DNA of 64,000 nucleotides from Myxococcota bacterium (GTDB lineage: Bacteria; Myxococcota_A; UBA9160; JAFDDA01). The notes beneath the pieces are model-generated. The model did not search any database, was not told where the DNA came from, and was given only the letters and a program-made list of their open reading frames with translations. The stretch's first letter is position 1, and each line of letters opens with the position of its first letter. This document shows positions 917-50,354 of this stretch, one piece after another. The position numbers were made by a program, and so were the translations under genes. The DNA is taken from positions 4,032,001-4,096,000 of the forward strand of contig OZ245817.1 in NCBI GenBank assembly GCA_965228475.1, read 5' to 3'.

Positions 917-1525
917 TTACACGTCTCCGAGGCCGCCGATGCACGCTCCACAGCGATAGCGCTCGACGAGGCCAGCGGTGGTCAGGGCGACGTGGGCCTG
1001 ACTGCCCGCCGCGAGGGCCTCTCCGCAGTCACAGCGCTGGTTCGCCGCCAGCACCAGGGGCTGCCAGCCGAGAATCGCCGGCTCCGTCGGGGATGCCGGC
1101 CGCGGCTGCGGACGCTCCGCCGCCTCCGGGGCACGCGTGGCTTCCGGCCGCTCCGACCTCGCCCTGGCCGCCCGCGCTGCGGACGTCCAGCGCCCGCGGC
1201 CCCGCTCGGGCGCCGCATCGCGGCGGAGGCGTTCGGCCACCTCCTCCGCCCCTTCGACGACGTCGTCGATCAGCTCGCCGAGATCCCCGCCGACGGCCTC
1301 ACTGACCGCGTCCGCGACGGAGACGGCTTCCTCGAGCACGTTGCGCACGAGGTTCGAGACCGGGACGCGGAGCTCCTCGGCCGCCCGGCGCAGGTCGGCT
1401 TCGAGGTCCTCGGAGATGCGGGTATGGAGGATCCGCTCCTTGCGGCGACGTCGGCGCTCCCGGCGCCCCTCACGGTCCGCCTGGTCCGTCCGCCCCCTGC
1501 CCTCTCCGCGCCCTCGCTCGCTCAT
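917..1525 (-). CDS. Hypothetical protein with ribbon-helix-helix-like N-terminal segment and C-terminal Cys cluster
   Basis: ILHTRISEDLEADLRRAAEELRVPVSNLVRNVLEEA has an RHH/CopG-like pattern; C-terminal CDC...CGAC. ATG at 1525 follows an AT-rich promoter-like stretch. Confidence 0.65.
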   Translation of the reverse strand: MSERGRGEGRGRTDQADREGRRERRRRRKERILHTRISEDLEADLRRAAEELRVPVSNLVRNVLEEAVSVADAVSEAVGGDLGELIDDVVEGAEEVAERLRRDAAPERGRGRWTSAARAARARSERPEATRAPEAAERPQPRPASPTEPAILGWQPLVLAANQRCDCGEALAAGSQAHVALTTAGLVERYRCGACIGGLGDV

Positions 1526-1532
1526 GGTCGAG

Positions 1533-1552
1533 AATGTATGACAATGTATTAC
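1533..1552 (-). promoter_or_regulatory. Direct-repeat operator and -10 element upstream of the RHH-like gene
   Basis: AATGTAT at 1533-1539 and 1543-1549 (10-bp period). On the minus strand TACATT lies 7 nt before the ATG. Confidence 0.5.
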
Positions 1553-2211
1553 GCTTTCCAAGGCCCCCGGAGCTCGGGACTCGTGAGCACCCGGTGGAAG
1601 GGCCCGCCGCCGCTGGCGGCGACCGCCCTCAGCAGGTCTTCCGGGGCGAAGCCGGGGCCGGAATCCTCGTGTTCCCAGGCGTCGCGCCCGGCCTGGGCCA
1701 GGAGCCACGGCGCCCAGGCCGCGAGACGGCGCTCGAGCCGCCGCTCGCAGAGCCAGCCCGGGGACACCACCTCCAGGGCGATCGCCCGGTCGTGCAGGGA
1801 GAGCACGAAGCCGACCTGCCCCTCCTCGGGACGAAACGCCGCGACCAGCGCTTCGACGCAGTGCGGACACGGCCGCTCGCTCGACGCCGCGGCCAGGGAG
1901 AGGCTCACCGCGCAGTGCGGCGGGATGAGCCGGCTCTCGGCGGCCACCCCTGCCCCGCCGAGCGGCTCCCCGGCCAGGAGGACGACCGGCAGCGCCGCCC
2001 GGTTCGTCACACGGACCGCCTCGGCGGGGGCCGCGCCGGCCGCGCCCTCCGAAGTCTCCCGCGACAGGCTCGCGACGGAGAGGAAGCCGTCCTCGAGGGC
2101 CGTCTCGACGGGCCAGACCTCGAGCGGCGAAACCGCACTCGACTCCGCCACGAGGGGCCAGAGCGTGACCTCCTTGTCCACCTGCCGCCGCGCGAGCCGA
2201 ACACCCTGCAT
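1549..2211 (-). CDS. Hypothetical protein, possibly a divergent ARPP-1 (DUF6569)-like domain
   Basis: GGAGG SD before the ATG. VTLWPLV...ALEDG...VRVTNRAALPVVLLAGEPLGG and EGQVGFV resemble ARPP-1 family segments. Confidence 0.5.
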   Translation of the reverse strand: MQGVRLARRQVDKEVTLWPLVAESSAVSPLEVWPVETALEDGFLSVASLSRETSEGAAGAAPAEAVRVTNRAALPVVLLAGEPLGGAGVAAESRLIPPHCAVSLSLAAASSERPCPHCVEALVAAFRPEEGQVGFVLSLHDRAIALEVVSPGWLCERRLERRLAAWAPWLLAQAGRDAWEHEDSGPGFAPEDLLRAVAASGGGPFHRVLTSPELRGPWKA

Positions 2212-2429
2212 CGATTCCTCCTACTCCTGCGTCTGCGCAACGTGGACCCGAGGCCGGGCCCACGCCGCCGCGAATGGCTGGGGCAGCGGGGGAAGCCCTC
2301 GCGTCGCAACGGCACGACGCCGCGGACGCTGCGCGCGCGGGGCGCTGCCCACGAACCAGAACATGGAGGGGTGCTGTGACAAGGGCGGTCACGCCGGCGA
2401 ACCGACAGGACCGCGACGGGGCCGGGCGC

Positions 2430-3347
2430 CTACAGATAGGTCAGCCAGTCCTCGTACTTGGCGTCGCGGCCGGCGACGATGCCGAAGAAGGCATCCTGGA
2501 GCGTCTTCGTGATCGGCCCGCGGCTCCCGCTGCCGATCGCTCGCCGGTCGAGCTCGCGCACGGGCGTGAGCTCCGCGGCCGTACCGGTCAGGAACATCTC
2601 GTCGGCGACGTAGCACTCGTCGCGCGTGATCTCCGCCTCGGTGACCTCAATGCCCCGATCGCGCGCGATCTTCATCACGACCTCGCGCGTGAGACCGGCG
2701 AGGATCGTCGGCAGCGGCGGCGTGCGGATCGCGCCGTCGCGCACGATGAAGACGTTCTCGCCGCTGGCCTCGGAGACGCGGCCGTCGGTATCGAGCATCA
2801 CCGCTTCGTCGTAGCCGTCGAGCAGCGCCTCGCGCTTGGCGAGGATCGAGTTCACGTAGTCGCCGCAGGTCTTGCCCTTGGTCATCTTCGCTGCGGGGTG
2901 GTTGCGCGGGAAGGTCGAGACCTTCGCCCGGATGCCGCGCTCCATGCCTTCCTCGCCGAGATAGGCGCCCCAGGGATAGGCGATCACCGCGAGCCGGATC
3001 GGGTTCTCGGCGGGGTTCAGGCCCATGGCGCCGTCGCCGACGAAGACGAGCGGCCGCACGTAGCCCTCGGTGAGCGAGTTCGCGCGGATCGTCTCGAGGA
3101 TGGCGTCGTTGACCTGCGCTTCGCTGAACGGGATCTCCATCAGGTTGATATGGGCGGAGTCGAACAGGCGCCGGGTGTGGTCCTGCAGGCGGAAGACCGC
3201 CGAACGGCCATCCTCGGTGGCGTAGCAGCGCAGCCCCTCGAAGACGCCGAGGCCGTAGTGGAGCGTGTGCGTCAGGATGTGGACGTTGGCCTGGTCCCAG
3301 GCCACGAGCTCGCCGTCGAGCCAGATCTTCTCACCGGTGATCGCCAT
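2430..3347 (-). CDS. ilvE: Branched-chain amino acid aminotransferase
   Basis: THTLHYGLGVFEG, YVRP, EASGENVF, ILAGLTR, ADEMFLTGTAAE class IV aminotransferase motifs. Confidence 0.96.
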   Translation of the reverse strand: MAITGEKIWLDGELVAWDQANVHILTHTLHYGLGVFEGLRCYATEDGRSAVFRLQDHTRRLFDSAHINLMEIPFSEAQVNDAILETIRANSLTEGYVRPLVFVGDGAMGLNPAENPIRLAVIAYPWGAYLGEEGMERGIRAKVSTFPRNHPAAKMTKGKTCGDYVNSILAKREALLDGYDEAVMLDTDGRVSEASGENVFIVRDGAIRTPPLPTILAGLTREVVMKIARDRGIEVTEAEITRDECYVADEMFLTGTAAELTPVRELDRRAIGSGSRGPITKTLQDAFFGIVAGRDAKYEDWLTYL

Positions 3348-27785: not shown

Positions 27786-29495
27786 ATCCAGGTCTTCGGC
27801 AACACCCAGGGTCTCAAGGCCAGCCAGGCCCGTGCCCTCGAACGCCTCTATCGCCGCCGCCTTCCCGCGGAACGCATCCTCACCCAGGAGATCGCTCGCG
27901 AGCTGACCGAGCTCTCGCACGAGATCCGCCGGGTGGTCGGGATCCTCGCGGACCGCCGCGGCGAGGTCACCCACGTCATGGTGGGCGACGCCCAGGGCAT
28001 CGAGCTGCCGGACTGGGGACGTCTGCGCGCCGGCCGCGGCCGGCTCCGCGGTCTGCGCTGCATCCACACGACGCTCGGGGGCGAAGAGCTCTCGCGCGAC
28101 GACCTGACCGACCTCGCGTGCCTGCGTCTCGATGCGATGGTGACCGTCGCGCTCGACGGCGACGGCCTGCCGACGCTCGCCCACGTCGCCACGCTCAAGC
28201 CGGCCGGGAGCGAAGGCGACGGCATCGACCGCCTCGAGCCGACCCCGCCCGCGCGCCTCGACACCGACTTCCGCGACTGGATGCGCGCCCTCGAAGAGGA
28301 GCTCGCGCGCTCGACGAAGGCGAAGGAGGTCGGCGAGGGCGAGCGCGCGATCCTGGTCTCGGTGCAGTCGCGCCGTCGGGCGAAGGACAAGAACGAAGAG
28401 GACTACCTCGACGGCGACGCCGTCATCGCGGAGCTCGAAGAGCTCGCGCGCTCGGCGGGCGTCACCGTCGTCGACCGCATCGTGCAGCATCGCCAGCGGC
28501 CGGACCCGAAGACCCACCTCGGCTCGGGCCGCCTGCGCGACCTCGTGATCCACGCCTTCCAGGAAGACGTGGACCTCGTGATCTTCGATTCGGACCTCAC
28601 GCCGACCCAGGCGCGCAACCTCGCGGACCGCATGGAGCTGCGCGTCATCGACCGCACCCAGCTGATCCTCGACATCTTCGCCCAGCGCGCCCAGAGCCGG
28701 GACGGCAAGCTCCAGGTCGAGCTCGCGCAGCTCAAGTACCGCATGCCGCGCCTCGCCCAGCGCGCGGACGTTTCGCTCTCGCGCCTGGCCGGCGGGATCG
28801 GCGGACGCGGCCCGGGTGAGACGAAGCTCGAGGTCGACCGCCGGCGCGTGCGGGACCGCATCGCGCGCTTGGAACGGGAGTTGCAAAAGCTCCGCAAGGA
28901 ACGCGCAGGCCGCCGCCAGCGCCGGCGCCGCCAGGGCCTGCCGGTGCTGTCCATCGTCGGCTACACGAACGCAGGAAAGAGCACGCTGTTACGAGCACTT
29001 ACCAAGACCGAGGCCCACGTCGAGGACCGCCTGTTCGCGACCCTCGATCCGAGCTCGCGCCGCCTCCGCTTCCCCCAGGACCGTGACGTCATCATCACGG
29101 ACACGGTCGGATTCATCCGGGATCTGCCGACGGACCTGGTCGAGGCCTTCCGCGCGACCCTCGAGGAGCTCTCCGAGGCCGACCTCTTCCTCCACGTGGT
29201 CGACGCCGCGACGCCGGAGGCCGAGCGCCGCATGGCCGCCGTCCACAAAGTGCTCGACGAAATGGAACTGCGAGGCACGCCGGAGCTTCTGGTGTTGAAC
29301 CAGATCGATCGCCTGCCGCCCGGCGAAGGACAGGCCCTGGCCGAGCGGCTCGGCGGCGTCGCCGCCAGCGCGATCACGCGAGAAGGGCTCGCGGAGGTGC
29401 TCGACCGCGCCGCCGCCGTGCTCTTCGCCGAAGAAGCGCCGCAGAACGCACACGACCGGAGACGGCTCGCGGCCGTCTCCTCCGGGGGGAACTGA
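27786..29495 (+). CDS. hflX: GTPase HflX, long form; start probably ATC at 27786 (alternative ATG at 27708)
   Basis: [13 protein letters not shown]-terminal extension, [44 protein letters not shown]. Confidence 0.94.
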
Positions 29496-44566: not shown

Positions 44567-47092
44567 CTAGCCCGAGATGCGGCGCGTGAGGGCCGCGATC
44601 ACGTCGGCCAGGGTGTCGAAGGGCTCGTAGGGAACACCCTGCCGGTCGAGCTCCGGCGCGAGGGTGTCCTTCGCGAAGGCCCAGTCCGCGGCGCGCGCGC
44701 CGCAGAGATCCGAAACACGGCCGTTCCCGATGTGGGCCACCGGCACGCCCGGGTTCCGGCGGCGGAACTGTTCGATGCGGCCGCGCTTGCAGGTGCCGGT
44801 GCCGCACCCGCACGCGGGGTTCGGGAAGCCCGCGGCGATGCCCCAGCGGTCGCCTTCGTACCAGAGCCGGTTGCACTCGTACTCGAAGCGGACGCCGAAG
44901 CGCTCCTGCAGCCGGTCGAGGTTGCGGTCGAAGCCGTCCGAGAGCACGCGGAAGGGCACGCCGCGGTCCGCGCACCAATCGACGAGATCGCTCGCCCCCG
45001 GGTCGAGCTCGACGGACATCAGGAATTCTTCGAGGGCCTCGGGCGGGCACGGGAGACCGTGCAGGATCTCGAGGTTGTACTCCCAGGCCGTGGTCTCGCC
45101 GCGCTCGTAGCGCTCCCAGGCAGCCGGCCGGCGGTCCGCCGCATACTGCTTCGCCAGGGTCGAACCGACGTCCTGCACCAGGAACGTCCCGTCGAAATCG
45201 CAGAAGACGGCGCAGGGCGGCGGCGGGCCTTCGCGCACGACCTGGGCGCTGCGCCCCGGGAGCGTCACGCCGGCGCACTCGGCGGTCTCGTCGGAGCCGT
45301 TCACGTGGGCGCGGATCGTCCTCGTCCCGTCGCTCGCGGAGGTCCCCTTCGCAAAGCCGGGCTCGAAGACGCCGAGGGTCCGGACCGCGCGGCCGCCGCC
45401 GATGCGATCCACGGCGCGCGCCCCGTCCAGGGTGTCGAGGAGCAGCGCGCGCCCCTCGTCCCCGAGGTGCTGCCAGTCGTCGCTGAAGATCAGCATGCCG
45501 GCGCTGCCGGCGATCGAGGCGCCGAGCGTCGCGGCCTCGTTCGGGGTCAGGTTCGTGTCGCTCGTGCGGGCCATCAGGCAGTCCGGGTCGTTCAGCCAGA
45601 GGCGCCGGTGCTGGAAGGCCCGGGCGAGCACGTTGCGGACGGCGCTGCGCGTCGAAGGCTGCGTCGGCTCGATCCCGGGGATCTTGATCGGTGCATCGTT
45701 TCCCCAGCGCGGGGCTACGTCCGGGCCGATGCGCATGCCGTCGACGACGCCCACCGCGGGCCCGAGCGGGCAGCCGCAGCCGAGGATGAAATCGCGCTCG
45801 CCGACGCCGCGGCGGACCGCTTCGAGCCCGGCGCGCAGCCGTTCGGCCCGGGTCACCTGCATGTCCGCCGCCACCGAGGGCATCGCCGCGGAGAAGAGGA
45901 AGTCGATCTTGTGGTAGACGAAGCCGAGGTCGTGGATCTCGCGGAACGTCTTCTCGAGGTGCGCGACGACCTCCGCGCGGGTCGTGTCGAGGACGTGGAC
46001 CGCGCCGTCCTCCGGGTTCCAGGTGGGATGCACGAGGCCGCGGAAGAACGCGCCGGCCTCGTCGCGAAGGAACCACTCGGGGTGGTCTTCGAAGACGCGG
46101 CTCTTCGGCACCGCGTTGAAGGGCGCCGTCCAGAGCCCCGGCAGGAAGCCCGCGGACCGGATGCCCTCGGCCACCGGCGCGAGGCCGCGCGGGAACTTCG
46201 CGTTGGTTTCGAGCCAATCGCCGATCTCGCGCTGGAAGCCGTCGTCGAGCTGCACGACGGAGATCGGCACCTCGTTGCGCGCGGCGGCGAGCGCGTCGAG
46301 ATTCCGCAGCAGATCCTCTTCGGTGACGTCGTGGAAGAAGTGGTACCAGCTGCACCAGCCGGCCTGGAAGGGCGCGTCGCTGCGCGCGGCGCCGAAGGCA
46401 CCGTGGGCGTCGGCGTGCTCCTGAAGGAGCCGGTTCACGTCGGTCCCGACGGCGGCGCGCACGGGCTCGAGGCCGCGGCGCTCCCCCGGCGCGAGTTCGG
46501 TTTCGAGCACGAGTTCGACGGCGAGGCGGACTTCCTCGGGGCCGGGCCGGAGATGGACGACGCCGAACTCTCCGCCGCGCTCGAGCACGCCGACGCAGCA
46601 GGCCGGGCCTTCGTCGGAGGCGCCCACCGCCGCGAGGAGGTGCGACTCGTGCCAGCCACCGCGATCCGCCGGCGGCGCGCCCCGCGCATGGAACATGCTG
46701 CGCAGCCACTCGCCGCTCGGGAAGGGTTCCGGCCCCGCTTCGTCGAGGGCCTCGGCGCAGGTCTCCGACCACGACTGCCAGCCGTGCTTCAGGAAGCGCA
46801 GATCCTTCAGGCCGTGGTCGCGCCAGCGCAGGCCGAGGAAGACCGACTCCACCTGGACCGGCGCCTCCGAGACATTTTGGACGGAGAGGTCGACCCGCGC
46901 GTGGTCGCCCTGCCCGTCGAGCGCGATCCCGATCTCGAGCGGACCGACGCGCACCCGCCCGGGGGCGAAGACCGCCTCGCCGACGGTCGGCGCGCCGCCT
47001 CCGACGGAGACCCCGGGCGCGAAGCGCGCCCCGACCTCCTGGGCGGTGAGTTGACCGGAGCCCTGAGCTTTGGCGATGGCGGAACGGAACAT
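44567..47092 (-). CDS. GH36 alpha-galactosidase fused to a C-terminal MtnX-like HAD-IB phosphatase
   Basis: HGWQSWS, GWCSWY, QLDDG, KIDF, MRIGPDV, NDPD; then in the same frame FCDFDGT, LSDGF, GTCK, HIGNGRVSD, FAKD. Confidence 0.85.
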   Translation of the reverse strand: MFRSAIAKAQGSGQLTAQEVGARFAPGVSVGGGAPTVGEAVFAPGRVRVGPLEIGIALDGQGDHARVDLSVQNVSEAPVQVESVFLGLRWRDHGLKDLRFLKHGWQSWSETCAEALDEAGPEPFPSGEWLRSMFHARGAPPADRGGWHESHLLAAVGASDEGPACCVGVLERGGEFGVVHLRPGPEEVRLAVELVLETELAPGERRGLEPVRAAVGTDVNRLLQEHADAHGAFGAARSDAPFQAGWCSWYHFFHDVTEEDLLRNLDALAAARNEVPISVVQLDDGFQREIGDWLETNAKFPRGLAPVAEGIRSAGFLPGLWTAPFNAVPKSRVFEDHPEWFLRDEAGAFFRGLVHPTWNPEDGAVHVLDTTRAEVVAHLEKTFREIHDLGFVYHKIDFLFSAAMPSVAADMQVTRAERLRAGLEAVRRGVGERDFILGCGCPLGPAVGVVDGMRIGPDVAPRWGNDAPIKIPGIEPTQPSTRSAVRNVLARAFQHRRLWLNDPDCLMARTSDTNLTPNEAATLGASIAGSAGMLIFSDDWQHLGDEGRALLLDTLDGARAVDRIGGGRAVRTLGVFEPGFAKGTSASDGTRTIRAHVNGSDETAECAGVTLPGRSAQVVREGPPPPCAVFCDFDGTFLVQDVGSTLAKQYAADRRPAAWERYERGETTAWEYNLEILHGLPCPPEALEEFLMSVELDPGASDLVDWCADRGVPFRVLSDGFDRNLDRLQERFGVRFEYECNRLWYEGDRWGIAAGFPNPACGCGTGTCKRGRIEQFRRRNPGVPVAHIGNGRVSDLCGARAADWAFAKDTLAPELDRQGVPYEPFDTLADVIAALTRRISG

Positions 47093-47113
47093 GGGCGGCA
47101 CAGTATAGGCGCC

Positions 47114-48109
47114 ATGTCCGCCATGTCCGAAGACGAAGCCCCGAAGGGCACGGCCGCAGGAGGTCTGCGGCGGGCCGCAGGAGCGGGCCGGGCCGAGGCG
47201 TTGCGGGAGCGGCTCCGCCGGGGCCCTCCCCTGCTGCTCGACGGCGCGCTCGGCACGGAGATCGAGCGCCGGGGCGCCCACGCCGGGCTCCCGCTCTGGT
47301 CGACCCACGCCCTCCTGGACGACCCGACGCTCGTCGAAGCGATCCACCTCGACTACCTGCGCGCGGGGAGCGAGCTGCTCGTCGCGGACACCTTCCGGAC
47401 CCAGCGGCGCACCCTCGCCCGCGCCGGGCTCGGGGAACGCACGGCCGGTCTGACCCGGCAGGCCGTGGACCTCGCGCGCGCGGCGGCTCATCACGACGGG
47501 TCCGCCTGCTTCGTAGCGGGCTCGATCCCGCCGCTCGAGGACTGCTACCGGCCGGACCTCGTGCCGGACGAGGCCGCCCTGGCCCGAGAGCACCGCGAGC
47601 ACGCCGGTCACCTGCTCGATGCCGGCGTCGACCTCGCCTTCGTCGAGACCATGAACTGCGCACGCGAAGCCCGCGCGGCCCTCGCGGCGTGTGCCGAGCT
47701 CGACCTGCCCGCGGCCGTTTCGTTCGTCTGCGATGCCGAGGCGCGGCTGCTCTCGGGCGAGCCCCTGGCCGAGGCCATCGAGACGATCGCTCCGATGGCA
47801 CCCCTGGCCATCGGCGTGAACTGCCTGCCCGCCGCGGCGGCGCAGGCGTCGCTGCCCGCACTGGCCGCGAGCGGTCTGCCCTTCTTCGTCTACGCCAACC
47901 TCGGCGCACCGACCGAGGAAGGCGGCTTCGAACGGAGCGACGCCCTTTCGCCGGAGGCGTTCGCCGAACACGCCCGGGCGTGGCTCGACGCGGGCGCGGC
48001 GGCCGTCGGCGGCTGCTGCGGCACGACCCCGGATCACATCCGCGCCGTTGGAAAGCTTCTTCCCAACTCGGGCGGATCCCGAACACAAATTGCGTCACCG
48101 CCTGCCTAG
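47114..48109 (+). CDS. Homocysteine S-methyltransferase family protein (start 47114 or 47123)
   Basis: LLDGALGTE, HLDYLRAG, GSIPPL, ETM, GVNC, GGCCGTTPDHI (Zn ligands). Confidence 0.92.
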   Translation: MSAMSEDEAPKGTAAGGLRRAAGAGRAEALRERLRRGPPLLLDGALGTEIERRGAHAGLPLWSTHALLDDPTLVEAIHLDYLRAGSELLVADTFRTQRRTLARAGLGERTAGLTRQAVDLARAAAHHDGSACFVAGSIPPLEDCYRPDLVPDEAALAREHREHAGHLLDAGVDLAFVETMNCAREARAALAACAELDLPAAVSFVCDAEARLLSGEPLAEAIETIAPMAPLAIGVNCLPAAAAQASLPALAASGLPFFVYANLGAPTEEGGFERSDALSPEAFAEHARAWLDAGAAAVGGCCGTTPDHIRAVGKLLPNSGGSRTQIASPPA

Positions 48110-48228
48110 GGCCTGCCTTCGGGCTTCGCGTTCCTGCTCGCCCGAAACCGGCAGCGAATGCGCCGACGGATCGATTTCACCAACAAGATCGGATACTTGG
48201 AGACTCGCCCCCGGAACGGCGTGGGGAG

Positions 48229-48244
48229 TGGCACGCGCCTTGCT
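48229..48244 (+). promoter_or_regulatory. Sigma54 (RpoN) -24/-12 promoter
   Basis: TGGCAC-GCGCC-TTGCT matches TGGCAC-N5-TTGC(A/T) exactly, in an intergenic region. Confidence 0.8.
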
Positions 48245-48254
48245 CTACCTACGA

Positions 48255-48338
48255 CACGACAGCAGCGAACGCTCCCCGCGCCCGGACTGAGTACCCCTCC
48301 CCTCGCATTGTGCGAGGACTCGGTCCGGGCGTTCCCTT
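48255..48338 (+). ncRNA. Candidate sigma54-dependent small RNA
   Basis: Directly downstream of the sigma54 promoter; 14-bp stem (one G-U) with 8-nt ACCCCUCC bulge, 7-bp inner stem and pyrimidine tail. Ends are estimates. Confidence 0.55.
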
Positions 48339-48350
48339 ATGTTCCGCACG

Positions 48351-50354
48351 ATGTCGCCCGCCGCGAAACGCCAGGCCCGCTCGCGAATTCCCCCGCTCCT
48401 TCCCGAACCGCGCGTCGTCCGGCCCGCCGCCGGCACCTTCACGCTGCGCGACGGCCTGCCCATCGTGCTCGAACCGGGCGCGAGCGAAGCCGACGAGCGG
48501 AGCGCGCGGCGCCTGGCCGAAGCGGTCCATGCGGCCTGCGGGCTCTCTCTTCCGGTCGAGGGACATGCCGAAGCCGACGACCTCGGCCCGCGCATCGAGC
48601 TGCGCCGCCGCTCGGGAGCCGGCCGGGTCGCCCAGGGCTACACGATCTCGGTCTCGGGCGTCCGCATCGAGGCCGTGGGCGGGGGCGATTCCGGCCTGCG
48701 CTACGCGGTCGAAACGCTGGCCCAGCTCGTCGCGCGCAGCGGCCGCGTGCCCGCCTGCGAGATCGAAGACACCCCGGACTTCCGCTACCGCGGCGTGATG
48801 CTCGACGTCTCGCGGGGCAAGGTCCCGACCGCCGACGCCCTGCGCGACGTCATCGAGATCTGCGCACGGATGAAGCTGAACGTGCTCATGCTCTACACCG
48901 AGCACACGTTCCAGTTCCGCCGCCACCCCGAGATCGGCGCCGGCGCTTCCCCGATGGATGCGGACACCGTGCGTGCCCTCGACACCTTCGCGGCCGAGCG
49001 GCACGTCGAGCTGGTGCCGACGCTCCAGTCGCTCGGCCACATGCGCCACGTTCTCGCTCTCGACGGCTACCGCCACCTCGCCGAGACCGACCGCCTCTGG
49101 ACGCTCGCACCCGTCGACCCCGGCACCTACACCCTGCTCTCGGACCTCTACGCCGAGTACCTGCCGAACTTCCGCTCGGCCTTCTTCAACGCGAACTGCG
49201 ACGAACCCTACGATCTCGGCCGCGGCCGCTCGGCCGAACGCTCGCGCGAGCTCGGGCCGGGCGGCCTGTTCCTCGAGCACGTCCGCCGCATCCGCGACCT
49301 CGCCCGCGACCACGGCAAGCGCACCCTCGTCTGGGGCGACGTCGTCCACCAGCATCCCCAGCGCATCCCGGAGATCGACCGGGACCTCGTCCTGCTCGAC
49401 TGGTGGTACGAGGCGAAGGGCGACTTCGAGCGCGTGAAGCGCTTCGCGGAGAACGGCATCGAGTTCTGGGTCTGCCCGGGGACCTCTTCGTGGAACTGCC
49501 TCTTCCCGCGCGTCGCGAACGCCGAGCAGAACGTCGCCGCCTACGCCGATGCGGGCCGGCGCCACGGCGCCGCCGGACTCGTGAACACCGACTGGGGCGA
49601 TCACGGCCACTACAACCTCCAGGCCAACTCCTGGCTCGGCTACGCCCAGGGAGCGCAGCAGGCCTGGTCCGGCGAGTACGACGCGAAGCGTTTCGACGGT
49701 GCGTTCTCGCGCCTCTGCTTCGGGGACGAGACCGGGCGTGCCGCACGCCTCTACCGCGAGCTGGGCGCCGTGCACGACGTCGGAAGCCCCGTGTTCAACG
49801 GCTCGCTCCTGCAGTTCATCTTCTTCGACGACGTGGGCTCGGCACTCTTTTGCGTGGGCGGACGGGCCGCGAAGCTGCGCCGCGCCCTCGCCAAGCTCGA
49901 GCGCGCGCGCGAGCGCATCAGCAATGCCCCGGAGGCCTTCGTCGGCGACCCCCACGCCCACGACGAACTCCTCTACGCCGCCGACGCCTCCTGCTTCGCC
50001 GCCCGCAAGGGCCTCGCCGCCCTCGAATGGCTCGCGTGGCGAAAGAAGCCCGAGCGGCTCGGTACGCGCGAGCGCAGGAAGCTCGCCAAGACGCTGCAGC
50101 GCCTGGCCGGCGAGCAGGCCGGGCTCGGGCGCCGCCTCCGCCGGCTCTGGCTCGCACGCTCGGGGCCCGGCGGCTTCGAGGTCGTGGCCGCCCGCCTGGC
50201 CGGCTCGGTGAAGAGCCTGCGCGCGGCGGCGCGACGGCTCGAGCAGGGCAGACCGCCCGCCGAGGCACCCCCCGAGGCCTTCGATTTCATGACCGGATAC
50301 CGCGCGTTGACCGAACAGGTTGCGCGCTCGGGACCGATCCTGCCCGACGCCTGA
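48351..50354 (+). CDS. GH20 family beta-N-acetylhexosaminidase (start 48351 or 48339)
   Basis: IEDTPDFRYRGVMLDVSRG, QSLGH, NCDE (catalytic DE pair), WGD, TDWGDHGH. Confidence 0.88.
   Translation: MSPAAKRQARSRIPPLLPEPRVVRPAAGTFTLRDGLPIVLEPGASEADERSARRLAEAVHAACGLSLPVEGHAEADDLGPRIELRRRSGAGRVAQGYTISVSGVRIEAVGGGDSGLRYAVETLAQLVARSGRVPACEIEDTPDFRYRGVMLDVSRGKVPTADALRDVIEICARMKLNVLMLYTEHTFQFRRHPEIGAGASPMDADTVRALDTFAAERHVELVPTLQSLGHMRHVLALDGYRHLAETDRLWTLAPVDPGTYTLLSDLYAEYLPNFRSAFFNANCDEPYDLGRGRSAERSRELGPGGLFLEHVRRIRDLARDHGKRTLVWGDVVHQHPQRIPEIDRDLVLLDWWYEAKGDFERVKRFAENGIEFWVCPGTSSWNCLFPRVANAEQNVAAYADAGRRHGAAGLVNTDWGDHGHYNLQANSWLGYAQGAQQAWSGEYDAKRFDGAFSRLCFGDETGRAARLYRELGAVHDVGSPVFNGSLLQFIFFDDVGSALFCVGGRAAKLRRALAKLERARERISNAPEAFVGDPHAHDELLYAADASCFAARKGLAALEWLAWRKKPERLGTRERRKLAKTLQRLAGEQAGLGRRLRRLWLARSGPGGFEVVAARLAGSVKSLRAAARRLEQGRPPAEAPPEAFDFMTGYRALTEQVARSGPILPDA

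Follow-up and report, generated by a model that had tools for sequence, protein, structure and literature searches.

Among known systems, Pxr, a myxobacterial small RNA (sRNA) with a sigma-54 promoter, comes closest to the locus presented here. It has been described in Myxococcus xanthus and related Cystobacterineae as a lineage-restricted sRNA that is about 100 nt long, seems to be transcribed from a sigma-54 promoter of its own and occurs as a single copy or as tandem paralogs in a host that these accounts present as devoid of hfq (PMC5568312, PMC5684412). Its gene is placed between nla19, which encodes a bacterial enhancer-binding protein (bEBP), and a NADH dehydrogenase gene, and the RNA is depicted with three stem-loops and its function in the SL1 loop (PMC5568312, PMC5684412, PMC11928866). 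In this work, we analyzed a 64-kb stretch of the genome of a Myxococcota bacterium (contig OZ245817.1, positions 4,032,001 to 4,096,000; hereafter, the window) and describe in it, between a homocysteine S-methyltransferase gene (HMT) and a gene of glycoside hydrolase family 20 (GH20), what is very probably an autonomous sigma-54-dependent sRNA, as judged by comparison with its relatives. The RNA is predicted to measure about 84 nt in the window and from about 65 to 170 nt in relatives. In contrast to Pxr, the neighbors are HMT and GH20 or other genes, with no bEBP gene adjacent, and one conserved bulged hairpin follows a variable leader in place of three stem-loops with SL1. The new family thus differs from Pxr in context and fold, and in a phylum-wide sample the covariance model of the hairpin (R1, see below) found no credible match outside the order of the host and one further family.

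Other sRNA genes follow a similar promoter logic. GlmY and GlmZ have their own bEBP, GlrR, which activates from an upstream site (TGTC-N10-GACA), and also sites for integration host factor (IHF). Both are described as sRNA genes with a sigma-54 promoter in Enterobacteriaceae (PMC3045617). The locus in the window would share this sigma-54/bEBP logic, but it has a different fold and no Rfam match, and its palindrome (GACRCAA-W-TTGYGTC) differs from the GlrR site. The Qrr RNAs are Hfq-dependent and possess several stem-loops and a conserved single-stranded seed. In Vibrio, sigma-54 and the bEBP LuxO are reported to drive these small RNAs as the main output of a signaling pathway (PMC10162802). 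The sigma-54/bEBP logic appears alike, whereas here Hfq was not found in the host, Rfam gave no match and the fold is another. As for the presumed mode of action, C-rich tracts complementary to GGAGG-type ribosome-binding sites (RBS) are exposed by the UCCC-motif sRNAs of Firmicutes, RsaE/RoxS among them, and by the rhizobial NfeR1, with no strict need for Hfq. These sRNAs may act in the same way as the new RNA, although their motifs lie in hairpin loops or linkers and usually in several copies, whereas the single motif found here lies in the internal bulge of a terminator hairpin. Finally, an RpoN-dependent flagellar sRNA acting post-transcriptionally has been described in Campylobacter jejuni (PMC11187230); no relation in sequence or structure to it is known, and the window offers no flagellar gene context.

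The element represents an sRNA family that had not been described before but is of a known kind, being enhancer-dependent and probably working through a C-rich motif. Rfam 15 gave no match at E <= 10 in 47900-48600, no hit reached the gathering score in the window or at the loci of nine relatives, and a search limited to an open-access library returned no prior description of the family; the novelty supposed in the sequence-only reading, an earlier annotation of this stretch made without database searches, held in this respect. We consider it rather probable that the locus encodes, as an independent gene, a small non-coding RNA with the bulge as its working surface, most likely through pairing with G-rich RBS.

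The evidence that carries this proposal comes from the relatives. When positions 48110-48345 were compared by BLASTN with 60 relatives, the matches started exactly at the promoter and stopped just past the hairpin, with 72-87% identity in many families of the same order. R1, built from 24 hairpin copies aligned with MAFFT, recognized one true copy in the own genome (85.5 bits), the next match (27 bits, L065) being an ordinary terminator without the bulge. At E <= 0.001, it matched 138 of 151 sampled genomes of the order, mostly with one copy per genome, and covered 84/91 high-quality genomes, 60/65 genera and 11/12 families. In a phylum-wide sample, 22 of 23 genomes of the order were matched, as were 4/4 from another family in its class, and no credible match was obtained elsewhere in that sample. 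Four weak matches were left there; the three that were inspected (L120, L121 and L122, outside the order) were rejected as plain hairpins or terminators without the bulge, and the fourth is in G156. The strand was discriminated as well, with 52-90 bits for the sense and 26-34 bits for the antisense sequences.

Tandem hairpin copies are present in some relatives (L098 of G010, 1413-1577; G041:C4:2638263-2638410; G057:C128:6296-6434), and in L098 both copies, the first diverged (35 bits) and the second canonical (78 bits), lie behind a single sigma-54 promoter. On a short contig, two matches of equal score lie on opposite strands 213 nt apart (G116:C406:1255-1330(+) and 1543-1618(-)), which is either an inverted duplication or an assembly artefact.

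The hairpin structure is shown by covariation. In the 24-sequence MAFFT alignment, 99.0% of the cells were paired and 13/21 pairs changed on both sides, a result that none of 500 shuffles reached. From roughly 150 matches, DNA was returned for 60 loci, on which the family counts given hereafter are based. Their alignment was made with the model and therefore leans towards it; in it, 97.9% of the cells were paired, with compensatory changes in 16/21 pairs (108 cells), again reached by 0/500 shuffles, and partners slid by 1-3 columns as a register control paired in only 30-45% of the cells. The changes are unevenly distributed: (i) all seven pairs of the inner stem show compensatory changes and its loop varies from 3 to 9 nt, (ii) 9/14 pairs of the outer stem do so, its lower 6 bp being nearly invariant, and (iii) the bulge has A in 55/60, C in 58/60 and the core CCCUCC in 60/60 sequences. 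The fold of 48255-48343 reached -42.5 kcal/mol, compared with -25.9 +/- 3.2 kcal/mol for shuffles (z -5.3; 0/200 as good), and each base of the bulge was unpaired with a probability of at least 0.99 in the ensemble of 48255-48338. All the elements named by the sequence-only reading are present at its coordinates or no more than 3 nt away from them, that is, the 14-bp pairing with one G-U (U48288-G48322), the inner stem, the UUCCCUU tail and the unpaired bulge (Table 1), and the conservation of promoter, stem and bulge on which it had made its proposal depend was found in the 60 loci together with covariation of the stem. Complementarity between leader and bulge, as in a pseudoknot, was not enriched (mean -6.66 kcal/mol versus -6.31 in shuffles, n = 58; 29/58 leaders below their own shuffle mean in pairing energy), so the bulge appears free. 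Between the predicted start of the RNA and 48339, the only start codon is a GTG at 48310-48312, which overlaps the unconserved loop.

The promoter was read directly as an exact -24/-12 element, in agreement with the earlier claim. Using TGGCAC-N5-TTGCW (GG at -24, GC at -12) as the sigma-54 consensus, this is the single exact occurrence in the window; two sites with at most one mismatch compare with 0.53 expected, and 10 of 100 shuffles reach two. In the 5.0-Mb genome, the exact consensus occurs at 22 sites as opposed to 2 for a reversed control pattern, and most of the remaining 21 sites sit 20-130 nt ahead of a Shine-Dalgarno (SD) sequence and a start codon, which together argue that sigma-54 promoters of this form are in use in the host. 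The host has one rpoN gene (PF04552 match, 214.7 bits) and 27 matches to the bEBP ATPase domain PF00158, of which 21 exceed 150 bits, so that about 21 bEBP genes rate as strong. Across the family, TGGCAC-N5-TTGCT, sought within 150 nt upstream of the hairpin, was exact in 48 loci, had one mismatch in eight and two in three, and was absent from one; the spacer between promoter and hairpin (17-120 nt) is not conserved.

Some other sigma-54 sites deserve mention in their own right. A second sigma-54-like site, with one mismatch, lies in the window at 28870-28885 (TGGAACGGGAGTTGCA). The 16-mer TGGCACGCGCCTTGCT is found identically at three sites of the own genome (G000:C1:1722277, 3789697 and 4080229), the first of which precedes a flagellar rod-like gene with an SD sequence; their flanks are otherwise unrelated, and the three identical copies look like chance among 22 sites. 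The promoters at G000:C1:4415843(-) and 4417624(-) lie near each other and have similar AT-rich leaders (containing ggtataattaaaattg and ggtatatttaaaattg), each followed by a small secreted-looking open reading frame (ORF), so that they look like a paralogous pair with a conserved leader. Two divergent promoters, at G000:C1:4199544(-) and 4205487(+), come after AT-rich stretches with repeated TGATCA-type motifs, and in both cases a long structured leader separates the promoter from an SD sequence and ATG.

Upstream of the promoter, k-mer enrichment brought out the palindrome GACRCAAWTTGYGTC(AC), that is, the GACRCAA-W-TTGYGTC compared above with the GlrR site. It is located at -112 to -150 in 52/59 loci (up to five mismatches to the 17-mer; 42/59 with up to three), and in the window it falls within the last codons of the HMT ORF. 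With up to two mismatches and the central CAAWTTG, it is unique in its own genome. The layout is that of a canonical enhancer-dependent promoter, and a bEBP would bind the palindrome; the enhancer-binding-protein control proposed by the earlier reading gains support from this conserved site. No strong bEBP gene is present in the window, and none was found among the seven upstream ORFs examined at loci without the HMT gene. One of the latter loci (L079) has a GAF-HisKA kinase gene on the opposite strand of its upstream region. The IHF-like match of the sequence-only reading is present too, but it begins at 48187, 3 nt before the range given there, and is weak, with three mismatches to WATCAANNNNTTR, which we take to be the IHF consensus. 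Scored against this same presumed consensus, a site with at most one mismatch at -30 to -50 was found in 12/59 relatives (shuffle mean 0.46, maximum 3), so the enrichment appears real in part of the family and weak in the copy of the window.

On these grounds, we propose that a bEBP acting on the dedicated palindrome, about 110-150 bp upstream, would be needed for the promoter, in part of the family with an IHF-type bend between both, and that transcription would start about 11 nt past the -24/-12 element. The RNA would consist of a short unconserved 5' leader and one long GC-rich hairpin that doubles as terminator, in which the 8-nt bulge ACCCCUCC would remain permanently single-stranded between two helices. 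The bulge is complementary to GGAGGGG(U) and shares CCUCC with the 3' end of the 16S rRNA of the own genome (GGAUCACCUCCUUUCU). Most likely, it would pair with such G-rich sequences at the RBS of SD-led mRNAs and block binding of the 30S subunit, and pairing this rich in G-C could proceed without Hfq. Hfq was not found in the host genome, a single contig of 5.0 Mb with 70.5% G+C and 96% completeness. That the sRNA acts by anti-SD base pairing is plausible, but we hold it only tentatively, at slightly less than even chances.

A scan of 17,173 candidate starts in the own genome gave as top match a 107-aa PilZ gene, with 13 nt of perfect complementarity abutting the ATG, and the RBS of DnaK ranked fourth; simple motif counts were discarded as a target finder for being too unspecific. 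Several observations weigh against the proposed RNA and its mode of action. First, the PilZ ortholog is present in only 8/41 genomes, and for DnaK, a protein present in 41/41, the complementarity is not kept among relatives (own genome -24.4 kcal/mol, same genus -13.5, others -5.7 to -22.7), so that neither of the two candidates tested is a conserved mRNA target. Second, a 7-8-nt complement of a generic SD sequence confers little specificity, GGAGGGG occurring 943 times in the genome. Third, a seed located in the bulge of a terminator hairpin and not in a conserved 5' region is unusual, and the near-invariance of the lower 6 bp of the stem would also suit a protein-recognition site. In addition, the U-tract is weak in the window and missing in some relatives, the IHF-like site of the own genome has its three mismatches, and the transcript, its ends and its RpoN dependence are predictions from sequence. 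Taken together, every part of the first interpretation that could be tested stood, while its trans-acting repressor that pairs with SD sequences is an inference whose two best in silico targets are not conserved.

The strongest competitor, which we regard as unlikely though worth keeping in view, retains a real, sigma-54-dependent RNA and lets it bind a protein as a decoy, sponge or scaffold, with bulge and lower stem as recognition site. It accommodates the invariance of the bulge core (60/60) and the near-invariance of the lower 6 bp next to a freely covarying mid-stem, the unconserved 5' leader, the lack of a conserved mRNA target in the two tests and the uniqueness of the palindrome, which may leave the activator with this RNA as its only output; moreover, the sigma-54-dependent GlmY is described as a decoy and serves as a precedent (PMC4152352, PMC7073468). 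However, no candidate protein gene is conserved beside the RNA, each RNA contains a single motif, unlike sponges of the CsrB/RsmZ type, and the GGA of the hairpin is base-paired and thus a poor site for CsrA, of which the host has one gene, in the flagellar region. The match of the C-rich motif to the 16S anti-SD core also gives base pairing a ready explanation.

An extension of the base-pairing mechanism, which we consider improbable, would make the RNA the sole direct output of a dedicated sensor/bEBP pathway, a mimic of the 16S anti-SD and a global switch between two modes of translation initiation. That it might be the sole direct output of its activator follows from the single occurrence of the palindrome in the genome. 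The induced RNA would titrate strong GGAGG(GG) RBS across the transcriptome and translation would shift from SD-led mRNAs to the leaderless class, the adjacent GH20 included. In a crude count, a -10-like hexamer was present 5-10 nt ahead of an early start candidate in 408 of 3568 ORF-defined genes (internal background 0.18% per candidate), and in about 1500 genes an early start candidate had an SD-like tetramer nearby (19.8% per early candidate versus 9.6% per internal candidate). These counts suggest a sizeable leaderless class, about 11% of the genes, alongside SD-led genes. If true, this would be a global, signal-controlled switch between SD-led and leaderless initiation.

Whether the RNA stands alone or forms the 5' leader of GH20 is decided mostly by the neighborhood of the hairpin in relatives, for which flanks of about 1.5 kb were compared, some loci being cut by contig ends. 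HMT and GH20 are both present in 31 of the 60 loci, HMT only in 13, GH20 only in six and neither in ten. A cis-acting leader or attenuator, controlling GH20 by conditional read-through or unfolding, would fit the 37 loci with GH20 downstream on the same strand, the distance of 8-20 nt between the end of the hairpin and possible start codons in the window (ATG 48351 and a second in-frame ATG at 48339) and a GAGGA sequestered in the inner stem. However, this GAGGA is at least 21 nt from any start codon, and 23 loci have no GH20 within the flanks compared. Of these 23, 11 have their largest coding-like ORF immediately downstream in the opposite orientation and six in the same orientation, and in the other six no ORF passed the filter. 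Eight of the convergent ORFs were confirmed with Pfam (four MFS transporters and four FolC-type ligases), and in those eight loci the sigma-54 transcript cannot be a leader given that the downstream gene is convergent.

In the loci that have GH20, between 7 and about 930 nt separate its start codon from the hairpin, and the gene keeps its own signals: a TAnnnT, such as TAGACT, TAAGAT or TAAGCT, is found 6-11 nt before the start, with no SD, in 31 of the 33 loci assessed (another four, in which the protein alignment started too far inside the gene, were left out), compared with a background of 81/4175 before ATG/GTG in these loci. The TATGTT that the sequence-only reading had taken for the own -10 of GH20 is one of these elements. 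With this conserved element and no SD, GH20 is most simply read as a leaderless mRNA with its own promoter. The changing neighbors, the convergent genes in at least eight loci and the own -10 and leaderless start of GH20 argue that the RNA is not a GH20 leader, in line with the stand-alone RNA that had been suggested. The leader function is largely refuted by synteny, and we consider it very improbable. At one of the loci (L083 in G121, 1410-3077, minus strand), the frame of a convergent FolC-type ORF runs on without a stop through the sRNA hairpin, to about 85 codons beyond its last domain, either as a real overlap or as an assembly or frame artefact.

Lastly, that the hairpin is a mere intrinsic terminator of HMT, bidirectional in some genomes, with an incidental or silent sigma-54 match, is hardly credible: HMT is upstream in 44/60 loci, a U-rich tract follows the GC-rich hairpin in many of them and R1 weakly matches ordinary terminators elsewhere, but a terminator would not keep an invariant 8-nt bulge and 72-87% identity across 12 families, the promoter is within one mismatch of the 11-base consensus in 56/60 loci with the conserved palindrome accompanying it, and the whole unit is kept in the 16/60 loci without HMT.

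Almost no regulatory RNAs have been described in Myxococcota outside the model genus, and the present lineage is known only from metagenome-assembled genomes. A complete regulatory module can be read here from sequence, comprising an activator site, a possible bending site, a sigma-54 promoter and a structured RNA with an invariant 8-nt motif, and its presence in about 90% of the genomes of the whole order makes it a clean entry point for study. It may lead to the cognate bEBP and its signal, to regulation by the C-rich bulge of a terminator hairpin and to sRNA action in hosts without Hfq that mix SD-led and leaderless mRNAs, and it would add a new family to RNA databases.

Table 1. Positions within the window of the predicted sRNA, its control elements and the adjoining genes
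Feature	Position	Strand	Remarks
HMT gene	47231..48109 (start approximate)	+	Pfam PF02574, E 1.4e-66, and NCBIfam; upstream neighbor
Palindromic, upstream activator-like site AACACAAATTGCGTCAC	48082..48098	none	Family consensus GACRCAAWTTGYGTCAC; 147 bp upstream of the promoter
IHF-like stretch GATCGGATACTTG	48187..48199	+	Three mismatches to the presumed consensus WATCAANNNNTTR; weak in this genome
Sigma-54 -24/-12 promoter TGGCACGCGCCTTGCT	48229..48244	+	Exact consensus
Predicted sRNA, about 84 nt	48255..48338	+	Start predicted from the usual sigma-54 spacing, end from the hairpin and UUCCCUU; fold -41.6 kcal/mol
Variable 5' leader	48255..48278	+	7-110 nt in relatives, not conserved
Outer stem, 5' arm	48279..48292	+	Pairs with 48318-48331
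Unpaired bulge ACCCCUCC	48293..48300	+	8 nt; invariant core CCCUCC
Inner stem CCUCGCA/UGCGAGG with UUG loop	48301..48317	+	48301-48307 with 48311-48317, 7 bp
Outer stem, 3' arm	48318..48331	+	14 bp with 48279-48292
U-rich tail UUCCCUU	48332..48338	+	Weak terminator tract; T5-T8 in many relatives, none in some
TATGTT, -10 element of GH20	48338..48343	+	7 nt, then ATG 48351
GH20-family gene	48351..50354	+	Pfam Glyco_hydro_20b and Glyco_hydro_20; neighbor outside the RNA, probably leaderless

Beyond GH20, the window continues with genes for an EEP-family phosphatase/nuclease, an enoyl-CoA hydratase and a PP2C phosphatase. A neighborhood devoted to cell-wall recycling (GH20, GH3, Mur ligase and MFS), considered by analogy with GlmY, was rejected on the NCBIfam assignments, which give FolC for the Mur-ligase-type gene, a generic efflux type for the MFS gene and a BglX/xylosidase-like type for the GH3 gene. 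On the other side of the RNA, a 1125-codon plus-strand ORF listed at 44732-48109 is a high-G+C artefact, since the G+C composition by codon position reveals a minus-strand gene with Melibiase-like and HAD domains, running from about 47100 down to 44567, and the true HMT gene only from about 47200 to 48109 on the plus strand, the two genes diverging at about 47100-47200.

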